From Psammoneis japonica (Eukaryota): a stretch of 64,000 nt of DNA. Position 1 is the stretch's first letter; every line of letters starts with the position of its first letter. The DNA lies in the NCBI GenBank assembly GCA_008632985.1, contig QPGO01000017.1, forward strand, positions 124,001 through 188,000. Reading direction: 5' to 3'. Both the position numbers and the translations under genes were made by a program. Under the pieces are notes generated by a model. The model made no database searches, was not told where the DNA came from, and saw nothing but the letters and a program-made list of their open reading frames with translations. Positions 1 to 44,186 of this stretch are shown piece by piece.

Positions 1-27
1 GAAAACATGCAAAATCAAAGCAAGCAG

Positions 28-397: not shown

Positions 398-421
398 TTC
401 TTTGTGCTGGCAAAAAGGAAA

Positions 422-18156: not shown

Positions 18157-18296
18157 CGTCTGTTCCACATGATTCATTCCAGGGCTGGCCGGGAGGGAAA
18201 TAAGTTGGGGCTAGTAATGCGTACCATATGTTACTAAATGTAAGGGAAACATTTCAGATCAGATAAATCATCACAACTACGGTCACAGTACTAATA

Positions 18297-23433: not shown

Positions 23434-24380
23434 GCTTTCTTGCAGCATCGATGTGTAGCTTGACGTCGGGAGAATCTATGACAGAAGGTTCTCTTGCAAC
23501 GGCAGCAAAATACCGGTACGAAATCTATCGGTTTATTAGAATGTTGTGTACTGGATGACCACTACGTTTCCCGTGGCTTCTAGAGTTTTCTGTTTGTAAG
23601 ACCTTTGGTAAGGCACTTCCACCAAACATTTCAACCAATGGCATGGAGTCAGTCTACGCTCGTTTTCTAAAGCTAGTACACGAGTATCTCCTTTCATGAG
23701 CTGTAACACCTACTCGAGAGAAAATGATCATACGCTGTCACGCTGTGCTACTAATTACCCCCCATAGTTCCTACTTATATTCCGGATGCTTGGACCCCTT
23801 GTCTACAACATACGACTAATGGTTCGCAGCATCAAACCGAAGCTCCGTTTCATCATCGTCAACAAGATGCTTTTTTGCACGGTCCTTCCCCTCCTTTTTG
23901 GCTGCAGCCTTGGCTTCTGATTCCGTAAGCTTGGCTTCCAACACCTCACGAGCCTTGCGTTCTGCTAAAGCCATGGCCAAGGCATTTTCCTCCGCCTCTT
24001 TTGCAGCGATCGCACTGGCTTCCCAAGCAGCTGCTTCGGCTTCCGCTTTCCTTCGATCATCATTCATGGACACCACGATCTCAACCGCGTTTTCCAAGGT
24101 TTTGGCAATGATTCTCTGTTCCTTGAGCACTTCGGCTTGATTCTTGACCTCTTTGGCATGTTTCTTGATTATGGCTGGAAGGTTGTCAACGAGGTTTCTG
24201 CGGCTGTCCGTGAGGTTCTCGTTGCTTTCCTCCTGAATAGGAAGGTCGCGCTTGGCATCGATGAGGTCGCGTTTCGTTTCTTCGTTCTTCGTCATAGAGC
24301 TTCTTTTGAGCTGCTTGGAGGACGCCTTGATGCTTGCGGGCACGCCCTTGAAATCTGCCGGCGTCGACACATCAGACTTT
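21908..24380. repeat. Tandem segmental duplication, copy A (~2.5 kb)
   Basis: Collinear with 25981-28442 from aagaggc(t/g)catcactcggctcgtgacggtcaacgcg to ccggcgt(c/t)gacacatcagactt; offset about 4.07 kb. Confidence 0.95.
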
Positions 24381-24724
24381 GACAGCCGCCACGCCCCCTT
24401 CTGCGAATCCCATTCATGACCGCTTGGCGCACGGCCCCTTGGACGATTGTAGGAACCCTTTCCATTCTTCACGGCAGGATTCTTTGGGTACTGCAGGTCG
24501 CTTTCATTCTCACTCACTTCAGAGGAGAAATCAACTTCCGAGACTTCTTCAGGAAACTCTTCCTTTTCCACGACCGAGCTGTTCGCATTTTGTGTCTTTG
24601 TGGAGACCAGGCCAAGAGGAACCCTCGAGTCATGTGCTCTGTGTTGCTTGGAAGCGTCGTGCTTTCCTTCGGCAGGTACATTTTCATCATTGACCATATC
24701 CAAAGGTTTGCGCTCCGCATCCAC
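23816..24724 (-). CDS. Hypothetical coiled-coil protein with RPRGRAP...W..G.W (AT-hook-like) motif; 5' end uncertain (possible upstream exon from ATG ~24856)
   Basis: Open 302-codon frame, E/K/A-rich C-terminus, paralogous to 27870-28440. The frame is preceded by a cacag acceptor-like site and an in-frame upstream segment with one TAA. Confidence 0.6.
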   Translation of the reverse strand: MDAERKPLDMVNDENVPAEGKHDASKQHRAHDSRVPLGLVSTKTQNANSSVVEKEEFPEEVSEVDFSSEVSENESDLQYPKNPAVKNGKGSYNRPRGRAPSGHEWDSQKGAWRLSKSDVSTPADFKGVPASIKASSKQLKRSSMTKNEETKRDLIDAKRDLPIQEESNENLTDSRRNLVDNLPAIIKKHAKEVKNQAEVLKEQRIIAKTLENAVEIVVSMNDDRRKAEAEAAAWEASAIAAKEAEENALAMALAERKAREVLEAKLTESEAKAAAKKEGKDRAKKHLVDDDETELRFDAANH

Positions 24725-25198
24725 CTGTGCAGCAGCATCAACAACAGGTTTTTAGTTCTCGGCTTTACTTGCGACCAATATAGAGTGAAGGTCTGCGATT
24801 TTCTGTTTCTCGTGTGCAGCCTTCAATAGTTCCATCTCCTCGTCTTTGGCATCCATCGCTCGTTGGTATTGGATCCTGCGTCAGCTTCCTACATTTTCAA
24901 TTTTTTGATTCATGCTCTGGCTCGCTCATTCACCGCTCGAGCTTCTCTGCTCACCCCTCGCACGTGTTTCCTTATTCAAAATTGATAAATATACATTTTC
25001 CAGTACGGTATGATGTGTACCGTATTCAAAATTCTACAGTACCGTTACTACCGTACCGTACCGTACATATCATACCGGTAGTAGGACAAACCCAAAAATA
25101 TTGTCTTTTTTCGCAGCCAAAAAGTCAGAGTGTCGGAGTTGCTGCAAAAAAAGACACTCTTTGCCTTTTCCGCATGCGTGCCTCCCGCGCAAGCAACC

Positions 25199-27473
25199 AT
25201 GGCGGCTATGACGGTTTATTACTGCAGGCCTACTGTAGACTACCGGCACTGTAGCGCCTTCAGCGAGCCCGGCAAATTTTGAGAACCTGTACGTATTATC
25301 CAAACGTATTCAGTCGGGCTCGTATGGCACGGTTTATGTCACGACAAACAAGGCAACGAAAAAGAACTACCAAGTCAAGGTCGACTCAAGTTCAAGAAGC
25401 CAGAAAAAGACACAAGGAGTATTACAGGGAAGTCAGAATCATGAGAGAGCTGAGTGCCTGTGAAGGAATCATAAGATTGGAAGCCTTTTGAACTTCCAGG
25501 CACGTTTCACGTTGTGTTGGAGTTGGCCGAGGGTGGAGACTTGTTTGATCGACTAGGCGATCGCACACCCCACACGAAGGAAGACGCACGCGACTTGGCG
25601 CTTTCGCTGCTGCAGACGATCATGCATATGCATAGAAAAGACTGTTTCACCGTGCCCTTGAACCAGAGAATCTGTTGCTGCGAGATTGGGTGGACAACAC
25701 CGCGATTAAGCTGGGAGACTTTGGTTTTTCGAAAAGCTGCCCGTGGATGGTTCTCTCTTACGTACGGTACTCGATGCGGTACTCCAGCCTTTGTCGCCCC
25801 TGAAATCTCTTGGGTTCCCCATCGGAAAGACCGTTGATATTGTGTCGGTGGAGTTATCCTCTGTGCTTTTGGTAGGATACGCACCCTTTTAGGACAAGCG
25901 TCGTAGAGATTTGTTTCAGAAGATTCGCTCCGCAGACAACGCCTTTCACGAGAAGTACTGGGAGTGAGATTCAATGAAGCAAAGAGGCGCATCACTCGGC
26001 TCGTGACGGTCAACGCGAACTATTGTCTACAGTGGAGAAAGCACTGGAGAGCGAATGGATCACCAAGCTTGATGGAGAAGAATTGAGCGGACGCGACTTG
26101 AGAGGATCCATCAAGATGCTGGGATTTCGAACACCTGTTGCCGCAGCAGAAGCTTAAGGGCGCTTTCCACGCAGTGAAGTAAGTACAGGCAATCGATCGT
26201 CTCGATATAATAGATCTGCTTTCATCTGAAGTGATTCCTGGTACTCCTTGTCTGTCTCAGTTGGGTAAGGAAGGCGCTGTTCTGGGATTCGGACGCCGTG
26301 ACTTTTTCTAGTGGCCACAACAAGTCTGATGCCCTCTTTTCCGATGACGAACCGGCGTCAAAAAAGTTTCACCAAAATGCTCCCATCCAGGAGTTACGTA
26401 TAAGCAGAGCAGCGCCTCAAGATGGGAGTTTAAAGTCAGCTCGGAATTCAAGGATGCATACGACCTTCTTAAAAAGGTTCGATAAAAGGTAGCATGGCCA
26501 CCGGTCAAGATCATCAAGCATGAAGGGCTAACCCGCATGGCGACGAGGGTATCATGAACGAGGCTTTCATTCCTGCAGTCTCTGAAGCACGATCACATTG
26601 TGCAGCTGATTAACTTCTGCGAAGCACCCGACTAATTTTACATGGTGATGGAGTACATGGAGGGCGAAGATGTCTTTGATAGAGTGAGCGTAAAAACTAC
26701 ACCGTGGAGGATGCTTGGGATCTCATCCGAACGCGATTGGAGACGACTGCATTCATCCACAGTTATGGTGCTGCACATCGGGATCTGAAACCCCAGGGTC
26801 AGACTGACAGCACGAAACACTTCTCAACTAGAGGTAGTATAGGTGCAGGAGTTGTCATTCGCGTACGCCTACGTGAAAAATGGATCTCTTCATCATACAA
26901 CGCAGATAATTCTGTCAAAGGTGAGCAAAGTCAGCAGGATATCGTGCATAGATTCTTGGCTTGTGTCATGGTTATGTTGAAACGAAGTGCTCCCGTGTTT
27001 CTTTCATATCAATATCTTTGCAATAGAGCAACGATGGAGACGCGGATATCAAGTTGGCAGACTTTGGCTTCGCCGAGAGGGTACGCATGTCTCAATCTTT
27101 GACCACTCGTTGCGGCACTTTTACCCATGTAACTCAAAAGATTTTAAAGAATGTTTCTCACGACCAAGCAGTCGACATGTGGCCAATAGGCGTTATTACG
27201 TGTTTGTTGTCATCGGGCTACCCGCCTTTTGCTTCGGATAGTCAAGTGGAACTGTTTCGACAGATTCCAAGAGATACTTTTGAGTTTCATGACGCTGAAT
27301 GGGGTGGCGTCTCACCAGAAGCGAAGGAGCTTGTGATTTGACCGTGATGACGAGCTTCTCTCTAGCAACGAGTTGTCATTCAGCGTCCGTGAAATCAAGG
27401 AGATTCGTAATACGTTCAAGGGTCTGTCCGGAGCCATGCGTTTTGGCTGTTTATCAAGAATAGCGCCAAATAA
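25199..27473 (+). pseudogene. Twin-domain CaMK-like kinase pseudogene
   Basis: Domain 1: GSYGTVY, EVRIMREL, LELAEGGDLFDRL, TRCGTPAFVAPEI. Domain 2: AHRDLKP, LADFGFA, VDMW. Many stops and frameshifts. Confidence 0.85.
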
Positions 27474-28442
27474 GCTTTCTTGTAGAATCGCTGTGTAGCT
27501 TGACGTCGGGAGAATCTATGATAGAAGGTTCACTTGCAACGACAACAAAATGCCGGTACGAAATCTATTGGGTTGTTAGAATGTTGTGTACTGGATGTTA
27601 CCACTACGTGTTCCCCGGCTTCTAGAGTTTTCTTTTTGTAAGACCTTGGCAAGGCACTCCCACCAAACATTTCAACCTACCGGTATCACATGGAGTCAGT
27701 CTACGCTCGTTTTTAACACGCTACACGAGTATCTCCTTTAATGAGTAGTAACACCTACTCGAGAGAAAACGATCATAGGCTGTCACGCTGTGCTACTAAT
27801 TACCCCCATAGTTCATACTTCTCCAATGTGCTTGAAACGTCGCTTGGACCCCGTGTCTACAACATACGACTAATGCTTCAAAGCATCAAAGAAAAGATCC
27901 GTTTCATCATCGTCGACAAGATGCTTCATCACACGGTCCTTCTCCTCCTTTTCAGCTGCAGCCTTGGCTTCTGATTCCGCAAGCTTGGCCTCCGACACCT
28001 CACGAGCCTTGCGATCTTCTAAAGCCATGGCCAAGGCATTCTCCTTTGCCTCTTTTTCAGTGGTCGCACTGGCTTTCCAAGCATCTGCTTCGGCTTCCGC
28101 TTTCCTTCGATCGTCATTCACGGACGCCGTGCTATCAACTGACTTTTGCATGCATTTGACCAATTCAGAAAACATCTTGTTTGTTTCGGTTTGATTCTTG
28201 ACCAACCCTGGCAAGTTGTCCATGAGAGTCTTGTGGCTGTCCGTGGCGTTCTTGTTGCTTTCCGTGAGGTTCTTGTTGCTGTCCGAGAGGTTCTTGGTGG
28301 TTTCCATCTGAATGGAAAGGTTGCGCTTGGTGTCGATAAGATCGCGTTTCGTTTCTACGTTTTCCTTTTTGAGCTGCTTGGCGGACTTCTTGACACTTGC
28401 GGGCATGCCCTTGAAACCGGCCGGCGTTGACACATCAGACTT
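25981..28442. repeat. Tandem segmental duplication, copy B
   Basis: Collinear with 21908-24380. Confidence 0.95.
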
Positions 28443-29533
28443 CGCCGAGACGGCTGTGTCTTCACTTGCCGTGCGGGCGATGGCATGAAATATCGAGTCG
28501 TCTACATCCCCGTGGTCGGCGTCACGGAACAAAACCTTCCTGGCAGAGGCGGGAGGATTCTTCAACACCTTTTTGTCCTCGACCGCTTCCTTCTTGGAAG
28601 ACGCGGGAGGATTCTTTGACAAGGACGAGACGGACACGGGCGCGGAAGAGTGAGAATGTCGCAAAGAACAAACACAAGCAATCCTGACGAAACGTACCTT
28701 TTTGTCATTGACCACCTGACGACTTTCCCGCCACACACGGAACTCCTCGTCCGTTGGGCGGTTCTCCCCGTGGTCGGCGTCACGGAACAAAACCTTCCTG
28801 GCAGAGGCGGGAGGATTCTTCGACGACACCTTTTTGTCCTCGACCGCTTCCTTCTTGGAAGACGCCGGAGGATGATTCTGTGACAAGGACGAGACACGGG
28901 CGCGGAAGAGTGAGAATGTCGCAAGGCACAAACACAAGCAATCCAAAAGCAATTTCTGCAGCGTACCTTTTTGTCGTTAACTACCTGACGACTTTCCCGC
29001 CACACACGGAACTCCTCGTCTGTTGGGCGGTTCTCCCAGTATTCCGTTTCAATGACAAACTTATCGGCAGAAATATTAAACAAACTCGAAAGCGTACCAC
29101 TGAAAGAATCAGACGCATGGGTACCCCTCTTCCACAACCCGCACCCTTTTTCCAGACAACCCATTTTGTACAGACAGTATGCCTTGTCAACCACGCTCAT
29201 CAAGTTGCCCGAGGTGGCATCCACTTGCCCGTTTTCGTCCACTTCAACGTACGCAACCAGGTTTCCGAGACAGAGAAGATGGCCGGACTCGTCAATGGTG
29301 TATCCTTTCCTCACCACGCTGTATTTCTTCGGATTTCCTTGACCATTCATTTTAGCGTTCCCGCGTGTGTCATACACTTGATACATCTTTTTTCCGGAAA
29401 GCAAAGTTGCAACGATTACATCGTGCTGCTTTTTCGTCATGATTTTGCAAGAAGCAACTTGATTCTCGTCGAGTACAAAGTGACGCTTGCGGACAACCTC
29501 GATGGCATTGATGATGTCTTGAATCGAAACCAT
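27870..29533 (-). CDS. Hypothetical ~496-aa protein with C-terminal coiled coil; exons 29533-28967, 28877-28698, 28613-27870
   Basis: Two homologous introns (AAAAAG|gtacg...ttgtcacag/ttgtcaaag|AAT) of 89 and 84 bp. Splicing joins the 323-aa and 360-aa ORFs into one stop-free frame. Confidence 0.75.
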
Positions 29534-30882
29534 TGTTTCTCTTGAAGATGCGTGAAAGCAAGCTTTGATAACAAACGAAAGTGGGGCTAGACGAGTGTCG
29601 TGTGTATCGAACGTCGAGACGATGATTGTGTTCAGTAGCCCCAGTGTCGTCGGCTTTGGTGACCGTTGCTCCGCTTCGTGCTACGAGCTGATTTTGAATT
29701 TGCGCGCTAGAAAACCTCGGTACCGTTAGAATGTGTAGAAATTACGTATGTAGATTGCGTAGAGCAATCCCAGCGCGTGTAGGATTACGTAGATTTGCAG
29801 TTTGAGTTGGGCATCTTTTTTGAAAGCCACCTTCATCCTGAATCCACTGCGACAATGACGAACTTTGCGTTGCTACCGCTAAACGTATAATAAGAGTTAA
29901 ATTTTCCGATGTTACAGATCGACAGACATTATTATGAATTAGCCACATATTACGCCGGCAGTGACATCGAGCAAATCGACTGCGGCTGCCGCCGATCCAT
30001 CACCCGCCGACGGCACGATGCTCGAGAAGGGGGGATCTCACGCGTTGATTGTCGAAATACTATGCAGGTTGCCCTCCAATCAACCGTTTGCGCAAGTGCG
30101 GGAGCCCAGAGACTGTTGCGCTTGTGCCGGTACCGTCTTCATTACTGTATGGCTTTTCTCGCGCAGCCCGCACCTTGCTCATTACTAGAGACATTTTTTC
30201 TGCATCTAAGAATGGTAAGACCAGTAAGTCATCATTTGAAATGGTGAAGCACTCACACACACTCTACAGTACGTACTGTCGAGATAGAAGAAACAGCAGA
30301 AGAAACAACACATTCGCCTACACTTCGTCCCTCTTCCATAACTGCGTGCACATTTCATCCAACCTTCGAACCTCTCTAGACCCCACTAGATACTGAAAGA
30401 TCCACAATCTGATTCTCCAAAGGAACAGCTTTTATCAAAGGACTTAAGTCATGCAGATTGTTGGCATGGAACGGCCACTTTAAGGACTTGCTCGCAGTCC
30501 CAGATATCCATGCTGAGAACTGACAGGCAAAAAACGTAGGTGTCATCAATGCTCCTTCGCGTCGTGTTCCCGGCATGCACTTTTCAGAAATTGTGACGGC
30601 CGAAAAACGACATGCCGTGATTATGCGCCGACTAAGACCCCAAGAAGGATATCAAGCGCGTCACAAGTCCATCTTGATACCAATAGTAGTTACAAAAAAG
30701 AATGTACAGTGGGATGAAGCATAAGGCTCCCAAACCGATACCCTTTTGTCTGCGCAAACGACGTGAAATAGTTTTCGTCGTCACAGATACAATAATCGGA
30801 TGTAGAGTGCCCAGTGCCTACACAACAGAAAAGGGAGCACGCAAAGGCGAGTTGAATAAGGACGAACGGCACCGAGACAACA

Positions 30883-32179
30883 TTACGACAATTGACTTAC
30901 TTCGTTCCATGTTTTTTGTCGTACTTTTGGAAACGCACCGCCGATGGAATGAGTCTGCCGCATGTCGCGGATGAATTTTTGGTTGACTACGCGCACCTCT
31001 CTTCGCTGTTGCCTTTGATATTGTAACACTTTTCTCGTGGCAATTTCGTCTTCGGCATCATCCGAGTCGTCCTCCATTTTTTGTATAGGGAAGGTGGTAT
31101 GTCGTCACCTTCAGCCAACCCGCTGTCGTAGGCATCGTGGGCGTCAGTCCCTACGCCGATGAGCTTGGTATCACCTTCCTCGGCAACGCTACTCTCGTTG
31201 CTATTAGCTTGGACCGGTACGGAAGACCCCCCCCGTGGAAATCTTCGTTCCATTGGTACGAGTTCTAGTTTGTATCGCCATTGTTCAAGATAGAAATAAC
31301 TGCACTTTTAGAATCACAGTCCATCACGATGCTGCTGCCGTTGCTAGCTTGGACCGAACGACAATAACCCCCCTTGCAAATACTCGTACTATTGGTAGCT
31401 TTTGGCTCGCGTTGCCTTGCGACGCTGCTGCGTTTCGCTTGGGAACCTTTGCGTCGAGCTTTCTTCCCAATTTTCTATGAGAGATGGAAAAAAAAAACAG
31501 TTCTAGAATTGAAAAGACAACATGAAATAGAACAAGAAATGAAACTTACCTTCTTGGACTGCGTGGTTTTGAATAAGTAGTATTTCCTCACTAGTATAAG
31601 TTTCTTCAAACGACGCTTCTTTTCTTCTGGTATGCACATCAAGTCCACTTCCTTCGAAATGAACCTTGGTTCTTCCTCATTCGTTTTCTTGAGATCTGAT
31701 TTATCAACCCGCTTGAAAAACATTTCAATGACCCACTCATCAGTGAGATCTCTACATTCTAACTTGTGCCGTTAAGCCAGTGGCCTGGATGATTGCCCAC
31801 ACGTTTGATACCGCTTGGTCACGAGTTCGCTATCGACAGCGGTTCTGTCGAAAATACTCGGAAAGAACAACTTGGTTCTTTCCAGGTTCAATGGATCAGA
31901 GCATTTTTCACCCATTGGCTCTTGAGTGGTAACAAGTGGGTCGACCAGTAGTGCACTTCTGGATGAATGTGGGGAGGAAAACATGGCATTTGGATTGACC
32001 AAATGGAAACCATTGCCATCGTCAGCGCTTGATACACCACTCGTTGAATTGGCCCGCATTCCGCCTCGCGGCATATCAACAAGTGCTAGTGGACAATCAT
32101 TTCTAGCGTTTACACGATCTCCACTGTCCTCTTGTGGCAAATAGGCACCATTCTTGTGTTCATTCATGATGACAAACAA
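30883..32179 (-). pseudogene. Disrupted hypothetical gene
   Basis: ORFs 32179-31772 and 31723-31475 are in the same frame, split by one TAA. gtaagt donor at ~31548 and ctcatag acceptor at ~31476. Further acidic fragments extend to ~30883. No recognisable family. Confidence 0.4.
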
Positions 32180-32189
32180 TCAACAACGG

Positions 32190-32480
32190 ATGATATGTAT
32201 GAACAATGATCGCAGGTAGATGCGGTGCAGCTCTCAGCTCGTTGGCAACGAGATCTGCGGATAAGACGAAAAAGAAAAGAAAGCAGAGTGTGAGCAATGC
32301 AGGCCAGTGATAAGGACTTCCGTATGGATTGATATAAACGGAATGTGCATTGTGCCGGACGATTATCGTCTCTAGTACACTCACTACCGATTTTCAAATG
32401 CCAGTCTTTCCTGAACAAACAGCGGTAGATTCAATTCACATGCCAACTCGACTTGAGCTCGAAACCAGGGCACAAGAAGA
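32190..32480 (-). pseudogene. TatD-family DNase gene fragment
   Basis: PWFRAQVELACELNLPLFVQERLAFE followed by PHLPAIIVH resembles TatD QLxLAxELxLPxFxHxR...xxxHCF. The rest of the gene is not seen. Confidence 0.5.
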
Positions 32481-33013
32481 GCGCCTTTCTTTTCAAACGA
32501 TCGACAAAAGCACAAAATCATTGTGCCATAGTAGTCGATTTTGAGGAGCATACGTTGCAAAGTTGAACTCTTGCAGGAAAGCGCTTGGTCCAAGATGACA
32601 CGATAAGGGGAATCAAATGAAACTGCAAGAAGGCCGGATCAAAGGTGTCTGCATTGAACGGATTGAATTCTGGGTATCGTTCCATGCTTTCCTCGGCAAT
32701 TATTGATATTTATCTCTCAGTGACACTTTCTCGAGTCATAAACATCCCCAGCGTGGCGTGCAGGAATCGCCACAACCAAAGGTACGGAAACATGCATTGC
32801 AAAGCCGAGGGTGCGCAAATGGCTGGATCGGCTTCGATTTAGCGGGTAAGTTGAGTGATATCACTTCTTCTGGCACTCAAAATAAAAATGGGAGATAGTA
32901 GAGGCTAATAAAAAGCATTGTTACTGTCGAACGGTTCCGTAATAGTCTAAAATACCGCTCCGATCCTCATGGTATTGCTGTTAGATGAAAAATGTCACAG
33001 GGTTCGAGAGAGA

Positions 33014-33266
33014 TTCATCGTGGAACCCCACAAATACGCGGGGACCCGTAACCCGGAAATGTGTAGAGTTGTACGTGCATGTATGGGGACTCTTTACGTA
33101 GGTTTTGTACCAGAGCTATCTCGCGAACTAGGCGTTTTTTCGAAATTTTGTCGTAGAAACTGTACCAGTTTTGCGTATGTAGGCTACATGTTTCAGTACC
33201 ACATACAAAAATGAGCGTAGACCTCTACAGGAGGGTCCCCGCGTATTTGCGGGGTTCCACGATGAA
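33014..33266. mobile_element. MITE (253 bp, 34-bp TIRs) nested in the left TIR of the larger element
   Basis: ttcatcgtggaaccccacaaatacgcggggaccc (33014-33047) versus gggtccccgcgtatttgcggggttccacgatgaa (33233-33266), one mismatch. The empty site is visible in the other TIR, and ~6 extra bases (gagaga/gataga) suggest a TSD. Confidence 0.9.
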
Positions 33267-34464
33267 GATAGAGAGGTGTCTCTCTCTTTTTTTTTTGCTT
33301 CCACAACACCTTTCCGGGTTCCCCTCAACAGCCACGTAGAATCGTACACAAAATAAGCACTAGAATTTGAGTTGCAACCATCAAAACACACCGATGTCAA
33401 CCATGAAGACCGCCGCTGCTCCGCCGCCAAGCGGCACGCAACTAACCAACCCGAACATGATAGTCGTGCATCTAGTCGAAGTGTCAAGCATTCTGCCATC
33501 AATCTGGACTCGCATGATTCTGAAGAGGGCTCAGAAACCCACAAGAAACGAGGGGCAGCCAGCTGCGAAACTTGTCATTCCCTGCGGCCTGCGGTGCTTT
33601 CACATTCACGAGGCGCACCGAGAGGCGCAATAATTCCAATCAATTATCGTCGAAGACATGGGCTGTTGATTCAGTTGCAAAGTGTTTTGAGAATCTCCCG
33701 CAGCCAAAGAGTGTCACGAGGAGATGAGCGGCGAGACCGATGTTGATGTTTGATGTTGTGGTGCCACAGATCGGAGGCCATTTGACACATTGTCGATGAG
33801 GTTTCTGATGCATCTGGCTTGTCCATGGATTCTACTCCATTGGAAGTTTGAGCTGCACTGGAGACACTGCACAAGCTTTTGACGTCATTCCTGGAGCCTG
33901 GTCATAAAAACCTGAACGACTCTGCTCGTGCACGTCAAAAGAAAACTCCCACTTGCGAAGCAGAGCATGATCTTTCGCGTTTCAAGGTGAACAGACAGGT
34001 GAGTGCAAACAAAAATCTCCATGCATTCAAACTGCATTGCCTGCTTGCTCACGCCCACAACCTGCTCTCTTTCAGAGCAGGGAGGAGGACATGTCGCAAG
34101 TCTCGCACTCGGACCGCGAGATGACGACAACGACGAGGAAACACACCGACTTTCATGTCGACAAGGTTCCTTTTCATGACTCATTCCAGCTTGCTGCAAC
34201 AAACAGTCCTCATCTGAAGAAGCACCATGGGTGGGGCAAGAACATGATTGGGGAACAATCCAAGTTTGATTTGTTGGTGGAGTTTGATTCGGCGCCACCG
34301 AAAAATGCAGTCCACACTTCCGAATCAATTGCAACATGCTTTGGAGCAACTGTGAGAGGATTGCATTGGAGATTCATCTTGTTGCAACATTGACATTCTG
34401 GGTGCCAATCAAGGCTGCAGCACCAGTGCTGTGGATGCTTGCCAGGCCCCACTCGACATGTTGC

Positions 34465-34770
34465 CACTCGAGAACAGTTGACCACACCGAGACAACACGA
34501 CGCCACCAGCTGAGACTCGACATTTGCTGTTCGAGATGACACAATGCCACTGGGAAGAGACTGCGCATTCTGCTCGAGATGATGCGATGACATTGGAGCT
34601 GGACATTTGCTGCGAGCACTCGAGATGATGCAACAACACTGGAGACCAGATGGTTGCTGGGTCTGCTCGAGACGACACCACTCGAGATCAGACATTGCTG
34701 CTCGAGACAACACAACACCAGTCGAGATGACAGCACAATCACCAACCTTGAATGGTCGTGACATGTCGAG
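34465..34770. repeat. Irregular array of about 10 TCGAGA(T/C) motifs inside the TIR element
   Basis: (c/g/t)tcgaga-tgac/-tgatg/-caac/-cgac recurs at ~34467, 34531, 34573, 34619, 34666, 34681, 34701, 34721. Confidence 0.7.
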
Positions 34771-35389
34771 TGGTGCTCTCCATAAAAGAGACAGTGCTTG
34801 TGCCAACATTGGAGTTGACGTTCACTGCTGCTGCAGTGCGAAGTGCGAAACATCCTTGCACCCCGTCTCAGCACGGCGGCAAGGCTTGCTGTGCCTGCCG
34901 CCAGTTGAGCGTGGTCAACAATGCATTCAAAAGTGTCTCTTTGAGTCATTCAGGATGCCTTTCCAAAAGCAAGCCCAACTAGAGAGTGCAATGTCATGAA
35001 AAACCGGACCGCTTCATTGCCATTGTTTGTTGTTTTGATCTTGCGGTGGTTGCATCAAATTCTAGTGCTTGTTTTGTGTGCGATTCTACGTGGCTGTTGA
35101 GGGGACCCGGAAGATTGTTGTCGAAGGAAAAAAGAAAAAAAAAGAGGACACCTCTCTCTCTCGAACCCTGTGACATTTTTTCATCAAACAGCAATAGATT
35201 TCAGATTGTGGATTGTGGTTTGTGCGCGTGCGTGACTGATGAGTCCCGTCTAACTTTATGTCTGCGCCTCGCGCCGCCGGTCGGCACGCACTGGGTCAGC
35301 ATGTATTCAGATTTATAATGTCCTGAAGATTGCAAACGGCATTGTCATTACCTGATGTCATCATAATTGGATAAGAACATGAATGGCAT

Positions 35390-37841
35390 CATACATTCAA
35401 GATTTGCCGCACCGGCAGGTGTGCATGGTCCTGTGTCAAGAGAAGCACAGTGCACGGTGTTGGCTCCGTCTGCTTGCAAAGCGAACAGATGTGGGTTGTC
35501 TTTGCACCACAAACCCTGCAGGCACCCTGCAACAAGCAATTTGCAAGCACTCCACTCTTGGTTTTCCTGCGCTTGTTTGTTGGGGTAAATGAGCGTTGAT
35601 TCCACCCACCGGCAATCCCTCCGCACACCAAAAGGGGTTGAAAGGTTTCTATGAGCGAATGGCCACGAGGCTCAATGAGTCACTCTGCAACCACAGTCAT
35701 CGTCAATTGACTCTTCCAAAAGATGCTCACAGAGCTCCTTTTCACACTCTGTGTGACCGCTCCAGGAGCTCCAGGTGGGACCTCGCAATGCTGAGCTGTG
35801 TGGCGCAATTGTTTTTTGTCAGGCGCAATTGTTTTTTGTCATCCAACGCATGTCTCACATGTGCATTTCCACATGTCCTGTTTTGTGAAGCCAAAAGCTT
35901 TCTGTCATCTGCACTCATGACAACAAAAATGTGCTGGGCACATTCTTTGATGTCTGAAGAATGCACCCAGGCATGCTGCAACGAATGCACTTCATTCAAG
36001 TGTGGAGGAGGAGACACGCTCGCAATCATTGACATGCCCAGAGCTCCCACTCAGAATTCTGTGGGCCCAATGTCACAAAAAGTCCCACCCAGCAGGACTG
36101 GAACCTGTCTGTCACAGATGATGATCATGCCAACAACAGAGAAATTCACATGGTTGGACTGGTCCAGGGTGCCCAACTTCTGTTTGATCTGCAGGTTGTC
36201 TTGCCTGCTCCTGTTGTGCTGATCAATCTTTCCACAAGTGTCACAGCATGTCTCTGCAGCTTTGGATTGGGGGATTTCAAGCTCTTGCCGCTCAGGATCT
36301 GCGCTCATGCTGACTTCCTCAATCTGTCGCCAATGAGTCCTGGAGCATGGCGCTCCTGCATCCAACGACAAAGTGTTGGCAATGAAACACCTTCAATCAC
36401 GATCCATCCAGACAAAGGCAAGTTTGTTTGCACAACCATCTTGCCGCAGTGTGACAACTCCATGGTGTGTTTTGTCCACACTCAGTGAGCTCAATGCTCT
36501 GCAGATGCTGCATGGGAAACTTCCGTGTTGCAGTCTCAACCACACCAATGAACTGCATGCCAATGCGCTCCATTTCTTCTGCAGCACCAAATGATGCAAA
36601 GTGTGAATCTGCGCAGATGATGCAATCTGTTGTCCTCCTGGACACTTGCGTTTTCCACCTCTGCTGTCTCACCAACTTCAGCCTTGGCATCATGCCACTC
36701 TGTCCACACGCAGAATTTTGCATCTCACATCCATTCTCCTGCTTGCGATCAATTGCCACATGCTGTGGGAGGCCAATGTTGGTCAAGCACCCACCAAGAC
36801 CATGCCACTTTGAGGTGGACTTGTCAACCCAAACAGCAGTCGTCAACCAATCTCCAACGGCACTCTTCAGATGACATTGTTTCTGGTTGCTCATTTGGCT
36901 GATGATCACCAAACCAAATTGAAGCATGCAAGGCATCAAATCTGTTTTGAGACATGCCGGTCTGTCCAAATGCCGGTGCCCCGAACGACACTTTGATGGG
37001 ATGGTTGTTGCCCAGAGAACCACTCTTGAATTGAGCTCAAACTTGGTTGCTGGGATGCAAACCCAAAAAAACTTGAGCAACTCAGACAAGTTTGTGTCAG
37101 CTGCTTGCCTCTTCCTCAGTTGCTGGTTGGCAAGAACAGTGATGGCATTGAGGTGGTCGGGTGGGAACATCATCACAAAAAAATCCAATCGGGAAAAACA
37201 CCCCACGCGGTCTCGACTGTTTGGTCCCAACCATTCTTCCAAACCAGTTTTCACCATCCATTGTCTGGCTGGCACTGGACCATTGACAGTGCACCCATGT
37301 GCACATCCTGCTTCTGCGTGCCATGGTGCTCCATGCGCAGCAGTGACAGGTTGCTCCCTTGTCTTGGGAGTCGCGCCGCTGCTGCTGGCACTGCTGGTGT
37401 TGTCGTTGCCCACGTCAGGAGGAGCATTTGTTGCATCCTGAGGAGCCTGGGGTGCTGGTTGACTGTTGTTGGAGGAGGGAGCATTGGAATTTGCTGCTGG
37501 GTTGTTGCTTGTTGCCACTGCGCTGGTGTGGCAGCAGCGGCCTGCTGCGTTGGTTGTGGAGGGGGTGGGTCACCGGGCATCACGTTGCAGCTGTTGAGAT
37601 CCTTCCTTTTTAAGGCATCACCACCAAGCTCATGCACCACAGTGACAAACCATGCACATCTTCCATTTGGATTGGAAGTTTGGGCCTTCAATTCTGCATG
37701 AACGACTGTCCCACTGACCTGTTTCATCTTCTTGTTGGAGCCATGCCTTCGGGTGCACTCAGCCTTGCTTGTCACATGAACGGTGTTGACGTGGACTCGA
37801 GCACCAACTTGATGCCTTGGATCTGGTGCCATGGTTGCCAT
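35390..37841 (-). mobile_element. Degenerate piggyBac-family transposase gene (stramenopile type), interrupted at ~35625-36120
   Basis: N-terminal VGARVH...AECTRRHGSN; core FFVMMFP, ELLKFF, WVDKSTSKWHGLGG, GLPQHVAIDRKQENGCEMQNSACG, ADSHFAS, FIGVV, IDQHNRSRQDNL; C-terminal QGACRVCGAKTTHICSLC cysteine-rich domain. Frameshifted. Confidence 0.85.
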
Positions 37842-39919
37842 GAGGAGGTTGTGTCATGATGGTTGTCAAAGAACGTTGGCAACTGCATTGTTGTTCGTCT
37901 CCAAACATCGATCGACTTTTCATCATCATCGATTGAGCGCAAAAACTCAACGCGCATGAAAAATTTGTTGCCTCTGTTGAGATGCCATCTGTTGAAGCCA
38001 TTGGACATCATGTGGAACCGCCAATTTTGGTCTTAAGAGGTTCAAGAGCATGAAGAACAGCGCAGCTGTGCAGTTTGACATTGCTGGTGTGTTTTGAGAT
38101 TTAGTGAGGGGGGTCAAAAAATTGCCTCAATTGAGGTTTTTACCTCAACTGAGGTCCTTGGTAGACTGGACACTAGCTGGCTCCAGAGCAGCAGAGGCAG
38201 AGAGGGAACAAGTCTCCAGCCGCCAGCTGCTGGCTGAAAAAAGTCTGCTCGTCAGTGCGTTTGGGGGTTTTGCAAGGCAGACTCTGCTGCCAGGGTGGTG
38301 TCATGCATTGCATTGAAACATGTTTTGGTTCTTCTCTTTGCATTGCCCTTTTGTTGCTCTGGCTCCTGTTCAGTTTGTCCCAAGCAACATTTTGTCATGG
38401 CAGAGCAACAATTTTTGCTGTGCTCAGCCACAAAATGGGCAGCATCACTTTCGTCGGAGCAACATCATTTGTTCAACACAATGACATTTTTGCATTTCCC
38501 CCCTTTGGTGTCCCTCCTTGACTCTGCCACGTGTGGGTTCTACGTGGATTGGATGCCTGATCAATGATTTCCTGATCCCACATGTCTGCACGCGTTTTTC
38601 TACAGTGTTTGCTTCAACAGACCAGTTCAACCAAAAGACCACAATCCAAAGACACATTTGTGCATTTGTTCAATTGGTTCACAATTTTTGATGCTTGCGT
38701 GGACCCCACGTGACTGTGTGCGTGATCAGGGAAAAAAGGATCCATTGAATCCACGCGTGTGTCTTTTTCACTGCCATGGAGTCCTGCCATTTTGGACGCC
38801 TCTTCCAGCAATGCACCATGGCCAATTCTGTTGCTTTCCAGCATCTCCGTTGCTGTGGGTCTGTGGCCACAGAGTCTGGTTGTCCTTGGAAGAAGGATGC
38901 CAGCTGCAAATGGTCTGTGAGTGACAGGAATCCCCACCTGTCTGATTTTCTTGTTTCAACCAAGTTGGGGCTGGAAGCTGTTGCTTCTAAATGCAACTTT
39001 TCCCTGCACCCATCTGATTTGGAGTGGCTTGACTGAGACTTTCAGATGTTCGTGACCCCACATCTGCTCATGCCAACAAGCACTGCAGAAGCAGAGTCCA
39101 CTCTGGCAAGTCCTTGGAAGAGCTCAATTCTGAGCTTGCTGCAGACAAGAAGCCTTGGAGACTTTGTGCTTCTCCCAGGTTTGCTTCCTCTGTTTCCCCA
39201 GCTGCTGAGGAGAATTGTGAGATGTGGTGCAAGAAGCTGTGGCATTTTCTTGCCATGATTGGTGATTGTGAATCCATGGTCATGCTCTTGCCTCATCCAC
39301 CAGCAGGCTCCAAGTGCCCAACTGTTGCACAGCAGTCCCTTCAGCATTTTGTGGTTCATCATTGCAGGGCCTTCAATCAACCATTGAAGTCTTCCTTTGT
39401 TGATTCTGTTGCCTCTGACCCTGTTTTGGACATCTTTGGCAACAACATCAGATGTGAAGGTTGCGTCAACAACACCAAGGGATTTGCCAACATTTGTGCC
39501 ACCTTGACAGTTCTTGGTGGCAAGCTGGGCACAAATGGCAACTGCAGAGAGCAGCATCAAGACTGTTCGCAAAGGTGTTGTCTGACCCAAAAACCAGAAG
39601 TTGGCTCAGCAGGAACTGTTTGAGATTTTTCAACTGCTTTGTTTCATGCCACAACCTTTCCATTGAAAGCCTTCTGTCATCACACACCTGTGTCACAGGC
39701 AGCAAGTTTCATTGTGACTCTTGCAATGCCAGGTCCCCATCATCAAAACACTGGTGAGTCTGAGTGGCCAACAGACTTTTTGTTTCCCTTTCATTTTTAG
39801 CCAAAATTCAGCTTTCTGCATTGCCATCTTGTCCCACAATTGCTGCACTTGCAATGCCAATCCTCCATTTCTGACACAGCTGCCCCTTGTCCCACTGAAA
39901 ATGCAGGGGTCAGCACAGC

Positions 39920-40760
39920 AGCAGCCACACACCCACAGATGGATGGGGTTTGCTTCTGGACTGGCTCTGGTAGAGTGTTGCATTGTGAAGGCCATGGGCA
40001 ACTCTGTTGGGTGCCAGGGGACACAGCAGGGACAATGGCAGGGCATTGGAGCACTTTTGTTGTGTTGATGTGGCCCCATGTCAGCCTGCAAAAACAGGTC
40101 TTGCCACACCAGCCACACCCACAGAGTGAGTGGATCTGCTTTTTGACTGGCTCAAGTGCAAGGTTGTCTTGTGATGGACATGGGCAACTCCCTTGGGTGC
40201 CAGGGAACCCAGCCAGGACAATGGATGGGTGTTGGAGCACTGGTGTTGTGTTGACGTGGCCACTTGTTGCCCTGAAAAAACAGGCCTCACACCACACCAG
40301 CCAGACCAGCAGAGTGAGATGATGTGCTTTTGGACTGACTCAAGTGCAAGGTGGTCTTGTGATGGACATGGGCAACTCTCTTGGGTGCCAGGGGACCCAC
40401 TTGGGACAATGGATGGGCGTTGGAGCACTGATGTTGTGTTGATGTGGCCACTTGTTAACCTGAGAAATGATGTCTTGCACAGTCTCACTGTCTCACCACA
40501 CCAGCCCAACCACCAGCAGAGTGAGATGATGTGCTTTTGGACTGACTCAAGTGCAAGGTTGTCTTTTGAAGGACATGGTCAACTCCCTTGGGTGCCAGGG
40601 GACCCAGCAAGGACAATGGATGGGCATTGCATCGCTGGTGTCATGTCGATGGGGCCACATGCCAGCCTGAAAAAACAGGGCTCACCACACCAGCCACACC
40701 CGCAGATGCACTGGGTGTTCTTTTGGACCAGTTGAAGTGCAATTTTGTCTTGTGATGGTC
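39920..40760. repeat. Tandem repeat, ~186-207-bp unit, about 4.5 copies
   Basis: catgg(g/t)caactc...ttgggtgccaggg(g/a)ac recurs at ~39994, 40179, 40367, 40574. Confidence 0.9.
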
Positions 40761-42198
40761 TGGGAGCAAGAAAGATTCTGTGTTGCAAGGGAAAAGCTGG
40801 CCTTGCAATTCAACATTGCTTTAGAATCTTCAGCGATGCACATGAAAAAAAAGAAAGCTGAGATCAATTTTCTAGCCCCAACGATGGGAAAGCAACGGTC
40901 ACCTGTGATTCCTCATCATTGAAGTCATCATGGCAATGGCCTGAAGCATCTTCAGGCTGAAAAACAAAGCCAACATTTGTCTCCATCAACTTCAAGTTTC
41001 TTGCACATTCCAAATGCTCATGGAGGCATCGCAAATGCTCAGATGAGTGGTGCCCAATCTCAAGATTTGGTTGGACATCTTTTTTGCTGTGATCCCTCCT
41101 GTTGTTGTCATGACCAGACAACACCTCTTCACCCTGTTCTGGCAAGTCATCTTCATTGCTGTCACTGTCATTTTTCAAAGTGCCACAAAGAACTTCATTT
41201 GGCCCCAACCTTTCCTCTGCCATGTTGCAAAAACTGTCAACCCACTTGGTGTTCATCAAAAAATGCCCGGGTCTCAACAACTTCACAACAACAGCTGCTT
41301 CTTTCTCTCAGTGTCAATGTCCTGTGACTTCTGGGCAACACATGCAGCACAGATCAACTCAAACAGGTTGTCAATCACCCAATTAGAGTTTGCCAACACT
41401 CCAAGATTCACGTGCACTTTGTTGCACATTTGCTCACCACAGCTGCCTCTTGCTGAAACAAACATTTTGGCAACTTCAAGATTGAAACATTCCTCCAAAA
41501 AATTTGGTCCATTGGAGAAAGGCTTGTTGGCCTTTGCATGCAGGTTCACCTCAAGGTGTTCTGTTCTTGCCTTGAACCCTTCAAGAACCATCTTGCAGTG
41601 TGTCAACAAGGGCGAGTTTCTCACAAGTCCCAAACTTTGCATGGCAAGGGAATCATCAAAAGGCAGCTTGCAAACAACAGGTGAATTAAAGGCTGCATCT
41701 TTGAGCAATTCATCAGAAACTCATGCATCCCAAACACCTTTTCAAGAATGGCTTCAGGGACATCTTCCAGCTCCCTTTTCATGTGGGCTTCAATTTGGAG
41801 GATTTTAACACCAGATGTGCTTTTTCAAAACAACTTTGGCTGAGTTGACAAGCAGAGACCAGATTGCCCACCTCTGCAACAGATGTTGTTTCCTCCCAGT
41901 GCAGTTGCAGGCAGTCTTGACAACACTTTGGCTGGAATGTTTTGACTTGTTGCACCTCCTTCTTGAGCCAGACAATGCTGATTCAGGTTCTGACTCAGCA
42001 CAGAAAATGCAGTCATTGTGGGTCAGTCACAGGATGCAGGTGCCACTGCGAGATCAGGAATGACCGGATCCAGCATGAAGTGCACAGCCAGTCCAGCGAA
42101 TGAGTCATTTTTTGGGGAAAATGCGCGGTCCCACCAAAAGATCAGGAATGACCTGATCTGGCACATTTTGCACAGAGATTTCAACAGTCAAAGTCACA

Positions 42199-44186
42199 TT
42201 GCAAATGACTTTCAAGTGTGGGATCTACGCACGCTGCAGCAGGGCCCTGCCCAATCTGGCGCCTGCAGTCAGAAAAAAAAAAACAATCACACAACAAGTG
42301 CATGAGTTGCAACAAGAAATTGATTCAATTGCTGAGCTGAAAAGTGTGGCAATGTCAGCAAATGATGCTGTTCCTCCTGCAGGTGGGCTGGGTGGGATGA
42401 AAAACAATTTTGGTGAGCATGAGTCACAACCAGAAGAGGCTGCTGAGCCAGGGTTTGGATTTGCCAGGGTGCCAAGTGAGAGTGAGCAAGAGGAGGAGGA
42501 GGAGGAGGAGGAGGTGGTGGTGGAGGAGATGGATGAGGAGGAGGACATGGAGAAGCAGGAGGAAGAGGAGGAGAAGGAGGAGGTCCAAGATCTGCCACCA
42601 TTGCATGATGCAACATTGACCCAGCTTGGAGGATCCATTTTTGGAGATGGAGTTTGCCCAAAAGGTGTTGTCATGGATGCAAAGAGCAAATGCAAAAACA
42701 AGACTGAGGGCAGGTGCATTTGCCAAGAGGCTGTTAAGAGTGTCTGCAAAACTTTGGGAGAGTGTGTGTGCAAATCACAAGTTGCAAATGACTTCAAGAC
42801 AAAGCACAAAAAATGCAAACAGGACAGCAAGGGGGTTCTCACAGAGTGGGTTGCTCCAAGGCCCAAGTGCAAGGACAACACTTCTGTGATTTTTGTTTGT
42901 GCAAAGTGCTGGGAGGAGAGAAAAGAGGTTGAGTTTGTTGCAATTGGGAGATGCAGTCACAAACCAGGCAAAGTGGGAATTGAAGCGAGGCAAGTTTTCC
43001 ACCATGATGAGTGCTGCTGCAAACCATTTGAGGAAAGCTGCTCAATGAGAAACCATGGGCATGAAGTTCTGAAGTGCGACAAGGAAGAGATTCCAAGGAC
43101 AACCCATGATGCGATGGTGAACAGAACAGAAGGACATGAAGCTGGAAGAGAGGTGCCACCAGGCAATCACATCAACTTTGGGAAAAAGGTGAAGGCTCTG
43201 GACAACAGAAGTTGTGAGTTTTTGCCCTCCTCCAAATGTGAAGAGGTGGACAAGTGGGAGCACTGGAGGGCCATGCTCAGATTCCAGCTCCACATGTCCA
43301 ACTCCTTGAGCATGAGTGAGGAGCTGGCTCCTTTTGTGTTGGACAAGGAATTGTTCCAGGAGAAGCTGCTGCAGGAAGGCCAATTTTCCATTGCCATGAT
43401 TGAGAGATGTGAGGTGAGACCCAAGAACCACCACTTGAAGATTGCTGGTGTGTCTGCTCTTTTTGGAGGACACTCATTGCTGCCAGAAAGAGAGAAATGT
43501 GTCCACCAGTTGACACACAAGGATGCACCCAAGTTTGAGGAATTCATTGAGTCAACTCATTGCAAGGAATCATGGGAAGGAAGGTGGAGAGGTTCATTCC
43601 TTCTTCTTTCCTAATCCCCTTGCATGGATTCAGGAGGCTCTTCATTGTGAATGATCTTTGGTTTGTTCAGGTCAATGCAGGCAGTGAGTGCATCATTTTC
43701 CAGGGCACAACCAAACATGGTGGAGAGACCTGGAGCATGCACAAGGACAAGTCATGGAGGACAAGCATCCATGGGCATGTGGACCACATGCCCACATGTG
43801 ATGCTGATTGCAGAATTGACCACTCAAACATCAGTGTGGATCAAAGCCATGAGGGCTTGCACATGTCAGCAAAGCACCTGGCAACCTTTGCAGGAGAGGA
43901 TGTGACCAGAGAGGTGGGGCACGTTGGTGAGGAATTCACAGACATTTGCAAAAATGCACAGCTCAAGGATGTTCAGAACTTTGGATTGAGGCACCAGATG
44001 ACAAGGAACTGGGTGATGGAGCAACAAAAGGCAGATGATTTGGAGAAACAACTCAAGAAACAAGGCAAGGTGAAATTTGATGAAATGTTGAATGCTTGTG
44101 TGGTGATGCAGCATGTGGTGGGCAAAATGATGAAGGAGAGGGGAAAAGGAGATGCGTTGACAATGTGGGGTCAACAAGGAAGTTGA
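42199..44186 (+). pseudogene. Relic gene: acidic N-terminus, Cys/Lys-rich middle, possible 2OG-Fe(II) dioxygenase-like domain
   Basis: Protein-like 471-aa and 208-aa overlapping ORFs with a poly-Glu tract and no Tyr after the first few residues. Motif order HQLTHKD ... SSFLIPL ... IIFQGTTKHGG ... WRTSIH. Confidence 0.45.

Follow-up and report, generated by a model that had tools for sequence, protein, structure and literature searches.

A TA/CA difference between the two arms of one inverted-repeat element at the edge of a TA-poor region in Psammoneis japonica

The two terminal inverted repeats (TIRs) of a 2.2 kb element in the diatom Psammoneis japonica differ by TA>CA at two sites. With a probability of roughly 0.7, this difference is a local trace of a transition process that acts on the DNA itself, in a specific sequence context and in transposon-rich regions. 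The element was found in a window of 64,000 nucleotides, the whole stretch of DNA that was analysed (contig QPGO01000017.1, positions 124,001 to 188,000), and all coordinates below are those of the window.

Compartments of the window and the boundary inside the element

The window consists of a gene island with normal dinucleotides and of converted DNA on both of its sides. The features are given here in order of position.

1..10900, no strand: left converted zone (TA 2.7/kb, CG 5.2/kb, CA+TG 234/kb)
11001..33400, no strand: gene island with normal dinucleotides (TA 40.9/kb, CG 58.8/kb)
31550..32796, minus strand: expressed gene adjoining the element, from a splice junction in an X2 contig
32973..33013, plus strand: outer left TIR, unconverted, from arm pairing
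33014-33266, no strand: nested MITE, unconverted, with its own 34-nt TIRs (97% complementary)
33267..33380, plus strand: inner left TIR, unconverted, with GTAG at 33337, GTAC at 33345, ATAA at 33354 and CTAG at 33361
33341-33370: inner segment of the left TIR arm, reading atcgTAcacaaaaTAagcactagaatttga
33401..35046, no strand: element interior, converted, from the conversion index, dinucleotide counts and an ORF scan
35047..35196, minus strand: right TIR, with GCAC at 35080 and ACAA at 35071 opposite the left-arm GTAC and ATAA
35055-35084, reverse-complemented: segment of the right TIR arm, reading atcgCAcacaaaaCAagcactagaatttga
35301..35400, no strand: unconverted 100-bp patch (index 0.47, 9 target-type TA counts)
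35401..63100, no strand: right converted zone (TA 3.1/kb and CG 12.2/kb over 35451-62950)
36400..37569, minus strand: piggyBac-like transposase relic (DDE_Tnp_1_7), from Pfam score and homologues

The conversion index was calculated as (RTA+TAY)/(RTA+TAY+RCA+TGY). Its value is 0.009 in the converted zones versus 0.38 in the island. The observed-to-expected ratio (o/e) of TA is 0.01-0.12 in the converted zones versus 0.5-0.78 in the island, and the edges are sharper than 200 bp. The flanks of the island are low in CG, and their CA/TG o/e is about 1.9. The sum of the pyrimidine-purine (YR) steps is conserved, at 237.8/kb in the island and 242.3/kb in converted DNA, and the GC content is 0.47-0.49 in both compartments, that is, unchanged by conversion. 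In the right zone the CG o/e drops from 0.66 beside the element to 0.02-0.16 at 39-45 kb. Genes of the island include RPS6, a zf-CW protein and protein kinases, and the Pfam scan of 26 long ORFs of the converted zones gave piggyBac and ankyrin matches only. The low-TA island windows 24001 and 28001 were considered as possible conversion and rejected, because their CA/TG is not raised; they encode Ala/Glu/Lys-rich proteins.

The preliminary description had placed the conversion boundary within the element, and the index agrees with this. It is 0.54 at 33200-33299, 0.27 at 33300-33399 and 0.10 at 33400-33499, and it is 0 from 34000 to 34699 in the element interior. The interior (33401-35080) has 6.0 TA/kb, 47 CG/kb and 199 CA+TG/kb at a GC content of 0.507, corresponding to a loss of about 85% of TA versus only about 20% of CG. 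The nested MITE is TA-rich, as had been described, with 79 TA/kb versus 41/kb in the island and 6/kb in the element interior; the summed depth of the bin holding it is 1193 versus about 60 for single-copy contigs. Conversion has reached the interior and the right arm but not the left arm or the MITE. Between the spared arm and the 5' side of the spliced transcript of the adjoining gene there are 177 bp. An X2 contig joins 32254 to 32385 with no other letters, and the skipped 130 nt are GT..AG on the minus strand; therefore, the 5' side of this gene is toward the element. The cover of run X2 ends at about 34005, which is not taken as a sign of silence.

It had also been claimed that conversion follows position and not element identity, and this part of the description is doubtful. 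A purely positional conversion would mean that a chromatin domain is converted whatever its content and that its edge falls inside the element by chance. Such a reading is unlikely, but it has points in its favour. One and the same element holds both a spared arm, the left, and a converted one, the right. The MITE, the high-depth repeat at 30003-30669 and a 2.5-kb duplication (21908-24379 and 25982-28442, 83% identity) are all unconverted in the island, so repetition alone is probably not the trigger. The contiguous converted DNA reaches about 27 kb and is mostly low-copy, and both island edges adjoin the 5' sides of genes. Against it stands the unconverted patch at 35301-35400, which starts 105 bp past the right end of the element in otherwise converted surroundings. 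The 104 bp between the element and the patch (35197-35300) have an index of 0.09, and only 1 of 381 converted-zone 100-bp windows reaches an index of 0.2. The patch indicates that the converted DNA is not a single positional domain. It is also not a known RNA gene, since the Rfam scan (at the gathering threshold) and the tRNA scan of the whole window returned 0 and 0 matches. In addition, converted tracts in metagenome relatives are discrete, 1-3 kb long and transposon-sized, with unconverted flanks on the same contig, and in one locus (L033) a single contig carries a converted tract and, next to it, an unconverted piggyBac copy.

The two arms of the element

The arms pair in three blocks: 32973-32992 with 35177-35196, 32988-33013 with 35155-35180, and 33266-33370 with 35055-35159. 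The element is flanked by TA at both ends (the right one at 35195-35196), although two bases are weak evidence. With its TIRs and TA flanks the element may be of the Tc1/mariner-like kind, for which the transposase would come in trans; the six ORFs scanned have no transposase domain, and the window has no second copy. All six element ORFs scanned are without a Pfam domain; therefore, the element appears to be non-autonomous. Neither the TIR nor the MITE nor the interior has a further copy within the 64-kb window, and a degenerate 25-nt TIR motif, scanned exactly against the metagenome contigs, gave 0 matches.

The arm sequences of the preliminary description and their coordinates were reproduced, with the differing bases at 33345 and 33354 on the left versus 35080 and 35071 on the right. 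Both differences are RTA>RCA, as had been noted (GTAC to GCAC and ATAA to ACAA). Once the MITE is removed, the identity of the arms is 85.5% over 159 nt, with 10 substitutions within the TIR proper and 7 indels. Six left-arm TA can be compared. Three are kept in the right arm (the GTAT end, GTAG and CTAG); the other three comprise the two TA>CA changes and one TA>TT, a transversion at the non-target TTAG. Target-type TA are kept at 35087 within the right arm and at 35195 at its end, which counts against the proposed process. The arms had been called direct before/after evidence. They do differ in the way described, but the label is overstated for two sites, because eight other substitutions lie outside what conversion explains. 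With these eight substitutions and the 7 indels, which are unrelated to conversion, the arms may never have been identical.

Ordinary divergence, in which the arms were never identical or have drifted and the two TA/CA differences arose by chance, is improbable even so. The limited similarity of the arms and the three retained TA would fit it. However, both changes match the target motif and the direction seen across the region. Given the background divergence of the arms, at least two specific T>C changes at four target Ts have a P of about 0.003 by a rough binomial estimate, and no TA of the right arm is absent from the left arm. Moreover, the adjoining interior has lost most of its TA.

Target context and direction of change

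Context survival was obtained by setting the counts of the converted zones against the island density, scaled by length. For YTAR there are 76 survivors versus 147 in the island (survival 0.30), for RTAR/YTAY 36 versus 478 (0.044), and for RTAY 3 versus 295 (0.006). The value of 0.006 is near the square of 0.044, as is expected if the two strands are hit independently. The earlier claim of a directional TA>CA/TG conversion in this DNA is supported, and the counts bear out its preference for RTA (equivalent to TAY on the complementary strand) and the sparing of CTAG-type sites. No strand coordination was detected at saturation in the window, a further point against the proposed process; RCAY versus RTGY counts are 743:740 and 318:334, with no runs. 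CA<>TG flips between duplicates account for 55 of 400 differences in converted DNA versus 5 of 254 in the island (Fisher P = 4.5e-8). On the basis of these flips, conversion acts in place, after duplication.

The direction of change was read from the transposase relic and from metagenome copies. The relic scores 33.4 bits against the DDE_Tnp_1_7 profile (cut-off 22.4, E = 3.9e-08) and so belongs to this family; its eight homologues have E values from 2.9e-51 to 2.3e-23. The relic gene is decayed, and it has His at all three Tyr columns that are invariant among the homologues, in each case with the codon R|CAY (a purine before CAY). The same directed T>C/A>G signature was found in 36 metagenome loci from another organism, of a related family; it also occurs in a second ochrophyte. 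Toward the more converted copy of eight pairs of metagenome copies, T>C was counted 175 times and A>G 199 times. In the same pairs the reverse transitions were counted 96 (C>T) and 100 times (G>A), and each transversion type 14-41 times. TA sites of the less converted copy are CA or TG in the partner at 170 of 233 positions. In the copy pairs, RTAR became CA in 31 cases and TG in 13, and YTAY became TG in 53 cases and CA in 19. TA was therefore ancestral in general, as had been assumed, within a scope formed by the Tyr columns of the relic and the metagenome copy pairs rather than by this TIR family.

In the metagenome, tract edges approximately follow the limits of homology in L006, L027 and L029, as judged by eye and not rigorously. 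An automatic comparison of TA-free tracts with homology limits over the metagenome loci used a definition that was too strict.

A sequencing artefact, in which modified bases of silent chromatin are misread and the cell DNA still has TA, is very unlikely. The X1 data repeat the TA-poor sequence but may be the source data of the assembly, and the platforms of both are unrecorded, which leaves this explanation some room. On the other side, the same signature is present in the 36 loci of the other organism, where copies of intermediate conversion degree and sharp tract edges within single contigs are seen. Strand-specific misreading at the palindromic RTAY would also be expected to give mixed CA/TG calls, yet contigs of run X1, 0.9-2 kb long and of single-copy depth, have 1-4 differences from the converted zone.

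The reverse direction, with CA as the family consensus and the left-arm TA gained by C>T at CpA, can be set aside as the least probable: position 33302 reads G, like the right arm, in all four covering X1 contigs (a C>G that is the only element difference among the 40 of 1360 listed), so the left arm has private changes, but the island has neither an excess of TA nor a deficit of CA/TG, and all direction tests give TA>CA/TG.

Proposed process and comparison with known systems

In the proposed process, RTA would be changed to RCA, seen as TAY to TGY on the opposite strand, and CG would be changed to TG/CA alongside, more slowly than TA is lost. The non-autonomous element, just upstream of an expressed gene at the island edge, would have been hit in place in the interior and in the inner part of the right arm, with the left arm and the young nested MITE, next to the 5' side of the gene, being spared. 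The process is probably enzymatic, directed at transposons or silent chromatin, and may spread by about 100 bp. TA loss appears to be saturated wherever it is present, and CG loss seems to vary widely. Among possible reactions, deamination of the adenine in TAY (A>I, which is read as G) is the most likely. Alternatively, the thymine at RTA may be oxidised or modified and then mispair with G. Biased gene conversion was rejected, because it predicts a higher GC content and opposes CG loss, yet the GC content is the same in both compartments. An RNA route through ADAR was also rejected, since the targets are DNA transposons and both strands show the change to the same degree. As a wider and tentative proposal, with chances a little short of even, a DNA hypermutation that targets transposons and erases TA would exist in diatoms, and perhaps in other ochrophytes as well; an enzyme acting on chromosomal DNA would deaminate adenine (TAY) or modify thymine (RTA). 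Within the literature searched, no report of TA>CA/TG hypermutation was found for diatoms or elsewhere; apparently, the process is undescribed so far.

Repeat-induced point mutation (RIP) of ascomycete fungi is C>T at CpA, creating TA and AT-rich DNA. The present pattern resembles it as a transition hypermutation of transposon-rich DNA with a dinucleotide context on both strands. Further likenesses are the discrete tracts with fairly sharp edges, the destroyed reading frames and the strand bias of a lightly hit copy, which is seen here between L034 and L016 (13 A>G, 10 of them at TAY, versus 3 T>C). In contrast to RIP, T>C/A>G here destroys TA, and GC stays near 48%; the C:G to T:A change at CpA with TA excess that marks RIP is absent, as the TA and CA/TG ratios given above show. 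RIP depends on a RID/DNMT4-type enzyme and on a premeiotic stage. It is triggered by duplication beyond a threshold of length and identity, but the 2.5-kb duplication, the multi-copy MITE and the 30003-30669 repeat are unconverted, although the threshold of this host may differ. The DNMT4 enzymes of other diatom species are related to fungal RID, and their function is given as unknown (PMC9998398).

Decay of methylated CpG is similar in that a CG o/e of 0-0.45 is matched by a TG/CA gain in the same DNA. The CG densities (5.2-12.2/kb versus 58.8/kb in the island) and the conserved YR sum are consistent with it, and judging from base composition the CG loss may well be ordinary decay of methylated CG. 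However, this explains the CG part only, and it is slow and variable among segments versus the saturated loss of TA.

ADAR A-to-I and APOBEC C-to-U editing act at the RNA or cDNA stage. ADAR hyperediting and APOBEC editing of retroelements share clustered, context-dependent transitions in mobile elements with the present case, and for ADAR also the A>G change. They differ in that DNA transposons (piggyBac and the TIR element) and 27-kb tracts are affected here, with equal strands and about 97% conversion. The natural substrate of TadA is the A of U-A-C in a tRNA loop, which resembles the TAY preference; this is the likeness to TadA-type adenine deaminases and to the base editors that were developed from such enzymes. 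To our knowledge, no natural TadA-fold enzyme mutates chromosomal DNA.

5-Hydroxymethyluracil prefers TpA and TpC. It is a modification of thymine, in contrast to the fixed T>C change found here, and no report of it in diatoms was present among the matches listed in the literature search. In dinoflagellates, another SAR lineage, it replaces 12-68% of T (PMC6313786).

If the proposed process is real, hypermutation defence of genomes would extend beyond cytosine deamination, and in a major group of marine primary producers the inactivation of transposons would work through TA removal, which eliminates all Tyr codons, the TAA and TAG stops and many other codons. It would also point to an enzyme with a short sequence preference that turns A:T into G:C and works on the double-stranded DNA of chromosomes; we know of no natural activity of this kind. 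Such a natural A:T>G:C DNA mutator would be a chemical mirror of fungal RIP. Together with CG decay, it would drive all pyrimidine-purine steps to CA/TG at constant GC content. In such genomes, assumptions of neutral decay would mislead repeat annotation, gene prediction and transposon dating, and the conversion index could tell silent from active DNA at a resolution of about 100 bp. For bench tests, the element itself would serve as a natural in-place control, with one arm spared and the other hit.

Regional loss of TA and CG

At 11554-12279 lies a ribosomal protein S6 (RPS6) gene that shares 93-94% identity with its counterparts in Helicotheca tamesis and Ditylum brightwellii, and the window is nuclear diatom DNA. 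Per kilobase, positions 1-11000 and about 33400-63100 show TA o/e of 0.01-0.12, CG o/e of 0-0.66 and CA/TG o/e of 1.6-2.0. The sole exception among these converted zones is 35001-36000 (TA o/e 0.21), which contains an unconverted patch. In the island at 11001-33400 and in the last kilobase, TA o/e is 0.5-0.78 and CG is near 1, except for the TA values at 24001-25000 (0.32) and 28001-29000 (0.18). These two windows were rejected as converted: their CA/TG is not raised, and they encode Ala/Glu/Lys-rich proteins. Zone averages were obtained with an index, (RTA+TAY)/(RTA+TAY+RCA+TGY), counted in 200-bp windows. Island windows gave 0.38 +/- 0.14, and windows of the converted zones 0.009 +/- 0.021. 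The island has 237.8 pyrimidine-purine steps per kb and converted DNA 242.3, so their number is conserved; GC is unchanged (0.479 vs 0.486). Therefore, TA and CG became CA/TG through transitions. The TA left in converted DNA is mainly YTAR.

TA survival in converted DNA, as survivors over island counts, scaled for length
YTAR: 76 survivors, 147 in island; 0.30 of island density
RTAR/YTAY: 36 survivors, 478 in island; 0.044 of island density
RTAY: 3 survivors, 295 in island; 0.006 of island density

If the two strands are hit independently, RTAY survival should equal the square of single-target survival, and it roughly does. At saturation, neither strand bias nor runs were found in the window (743:740 and 318:334). 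It is this regional pattern, rather than two TIR sites, that is the real finding.

TIR arms and direction of change

The island ends within a TIR transposon whose left arm lies on the gene side and whose right arm lies in converted DNA.

Features of the element
32973-32992 with 35177-35196: paired arm segments
32988-33013 with 35155-35180: paired arm segments
33266-33370 with 35055-35159: paired arm segments
33014-33266: MITE inserted into the left arm; 34-nt TIRs of its own, 97% complementary

A TA dinucleotide is present beside each end. No Pfam domain was detected in the six interior ORFs scanned, and no second copy occurs within the 64-kb window. The element is read, from its structure, as a putative non-autonomous TIR element of 2.2 kb. 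The preliminary description had reported that its arms differ by TA>CA. The two 30-mers concerned were confirmed, and they differ only at 33345 (GTAC vs GCAC) and 33354 (ATAA vs ACAA). Overall, the arms are 85.5% identical over 159 nt; the TIR proper carries 10 substitutions, and there are also 7 indels. Among six comparable TA sites of the left arm, three are kept in the right arm, two are changed to CA, and one (the non-target TTAG) carries a transversion. By a rough binomial estimate against the divergence of the arms themselves, at least two T>C changes at four target Ts have P ~0.003. The two sites are thus more than chance, yet thin evidence taken alone. At base 33302 the window has C; all four covering contigs of sequencing run X1 have G and match the right arm. 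This indicates other copies of the element in the X1 sample, and private changes in the left arm.

The direction of change was examined with a piggyBac-like relic.

Relic
36400-37569, minus strand: piggyBac-like relic

When aligned with five protein-collection homologues, the relic has His at all three columns where the five unanimously have Tyr. These His are encoded by CAT, CAT and CAC, with a purine before each codon. P0128, a sixth homologue, is nearly without Tyr (2 in 395 residues) and has 19 Cys. Relatives of P0128 were taken as 36 loci on metagenome contigs. A dynamin-like protein encoded in the flank of one locus has its best named matches in Chaetoceros (66%) and Triparma (65%). Therefore, the metagenome host is an ochrophyte, probably a diatom. 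TA o/e among the 36 loci ranges from 0.06 to 0.91 with every degree of TA loss (e.g. L024, L031, L028, L022), and converted blocks of 1-3 kb share contigs with unconverted flanks. Since this piggyBac family belongs to another ochrophyte, the process is not limited to the species of the window. Eight pairs of related copies, less vs more converted, were then counted directionally. Toward the more converted copy there were 175 T>C and 199 A>G changes, vs 96 C>T and 100 G>A in reverse and 14-41 transversions per type. TA sites of the less converted copy had become CA or TG in 170 of 233 cases. RTAR gave mostly CA (31, vs 13 TG), YTAY mostly TG (53, vs 19 CA), and YTAR was kept most often (17/38). 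From the Tyr to His changes and the copy pairs, TA is thus the ancestral state in general, with the same motif preference in a second organism and other data sets; in this TIR family, TA may be ancestral. One lightly converted pair, L034:212-816 and L016:2586-3190 (95% identity), carries 13 A>G changes, ten of them at TAY, and 3 T>C. Single episodes may thus be confined to one strand, and the pair is a possible snapshot of one episode.

Probable targeting and tempo of conversion

As had been described, the boundary lies inside the element: the 100-bp index falls through 0.54, 0.27, 0.10 and 0.0 across 33200-33599. An expressed gene has its 5' side toward the spared left arm. In one contig of run X2, 32254 continues directly at 32385 with no mismatch, and the skipped stretch is GT..AG on the minus strand. 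The opposite island edge adjoins the upstream side of RPS6, so that both edges fit protection through active chromatin.

The patch at 35301-35400 has an index of 0.47; in the converted zones, a value of 0.2 is reached by only one of 381 other 100-bp windows. It is the sole clearly unconverted window within about 38 kb of converted DNA and has no Rfam or tRNA match. The 104 bp separating it from the element could be converted or TA-poor by nature (index 0.09; 8% of island windows are equally low). Possible origins of the patch are original flank between two transposon-directed tracts, a later insertion and a protected site. Conversion by position rather than element identity is in line with the boundary inside the element but doubtful in view of this patch, as converted DNA is not one domain. 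The island holds unconverted repeats, namely the MITE, a multi-copy segment at 30003-30669 and a segmental duplication.

Duplication
21908-24379 and 25982-28442: unconverted 2.5-kb segmental duplication, 83% identity, with a protein kinase and a coiled-coil Ala/Glu/Lys-rich protein

Repetition as such does not seem to attract conversion. Given the patch and the unhit repeats, we favour a conversion aimed at transposons or silent chromatin, spreading a short way and limited by active promoters, over a pure positional domain or a duplication sensor like that of repeat-induced point mutation (RIP). High-copy repeats also occur in the converted zone, where summed X1 depth is 4281-7478 at 35339-36672 and 1060 at 38007-38673 (single-copy about 60).

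Between duplicated segments, CA<>TG flips make up 55 of 400 differences in converted DNA vs 5 of 254 in the island (Fisher P = 4.5e-8). The excess indicates that duplication came first and that each copy then resolved its conversion independently. Wherever TA has been lost, the loss is saturated, while CG o/e varies from 0.66 to 0 across converted kilobases. In the element interior TA is 6.0 per kb (about 85% lost) and CG 47 per kb (about 20% lost). TA conversion thus seems quick and CG decay slow, which favours an active process over mutational bias. With distance from the island, CG o/e steps down from 0.64-0.66 (34-36 kb) to 0.31-0.45 (36-39 kb) and 0.02-0.16 (39-45 kb), while TA is uniformly low across 34-45 kb. 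CG may act as an age clock for converted segments. In the tandem repeats at 61490-63081 and 39882-40758, also converted, units differ largely through CA<>TG flips; 61502-61865 and 61696-62061 differ by 15 flips, 16 single transitions and 4 transversions.

X1 records 5-7 match the converted zone nearly exactly (0.9-2 kb, 1-4 differences, single-copy depth), although X1 is possibly the source sample of the assembly and thus non-independent support. That misread bases produced the TA-poor sequence is very improbable, since the signature recurs in another organism's contigs, taken from other data sets, where copies of intermediate conversion and abrupt tract borders occur, and strand-specific misreading at palindromic RTAY should give mixed calls, whereas the contigs are clean.

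Possible chemistry and relation to known systems

The changes T>C at RTA and A>G at TAY are one event, seen from opposite strands. Adenine at TAY may be deaminated; inosine would pair with C and the site would end as G. The substrate context of TadA is U-A-C, which the TAY context resembles. Alternatively, thymine at RTA may be oxidised or otherwise modified and then mispair with G. 5-Hydroxymethyluracil prefers TpA. In dinoflagellate DNA, it is reported in place of 12-68% of T (PMC6313786). The two chemistries cannot be separated from sequence alone. CG loss would most simply be decay of methylated CG, and diatom DNMT4 is a further candidate for this part; it is described in PMC9998398 as a relative of fungal RID whose function is unknown.

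The process resembles RIP as transposon-directed, tract-wise transition hypermutation. However, TA is destroyed in this diatom and created by RIP, so that RIP's defining chemistry does not apply here, and plain duplication seems not to be a trigger. No description of such a TA-erasing process was found in the full-text literature searched. The process would belong with hypermutation-based genome defence, and its base specificity would be unprecedented. The preliminary observation was confirmed and its interpretation partly supported: a directional change of TA to CA was borne out, and conversion by position alone is doubtful in view of the patch at 35301-35400. The underlying phenomenon is highly unusual and has strong support.

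Two other genes were noted.

Other genes
16399-17319, plus strand: CW-type zinc finger gene in the island (Pfam zf-CW, E = 1.9e-17)
55587-56237, plus strand: ankyrin-repeat ORF within converted DNA

zf-CW domains read histone H3K4 methylation. The ankyrin-repeat ORF is probably a decayed gene or a transposon passenger.
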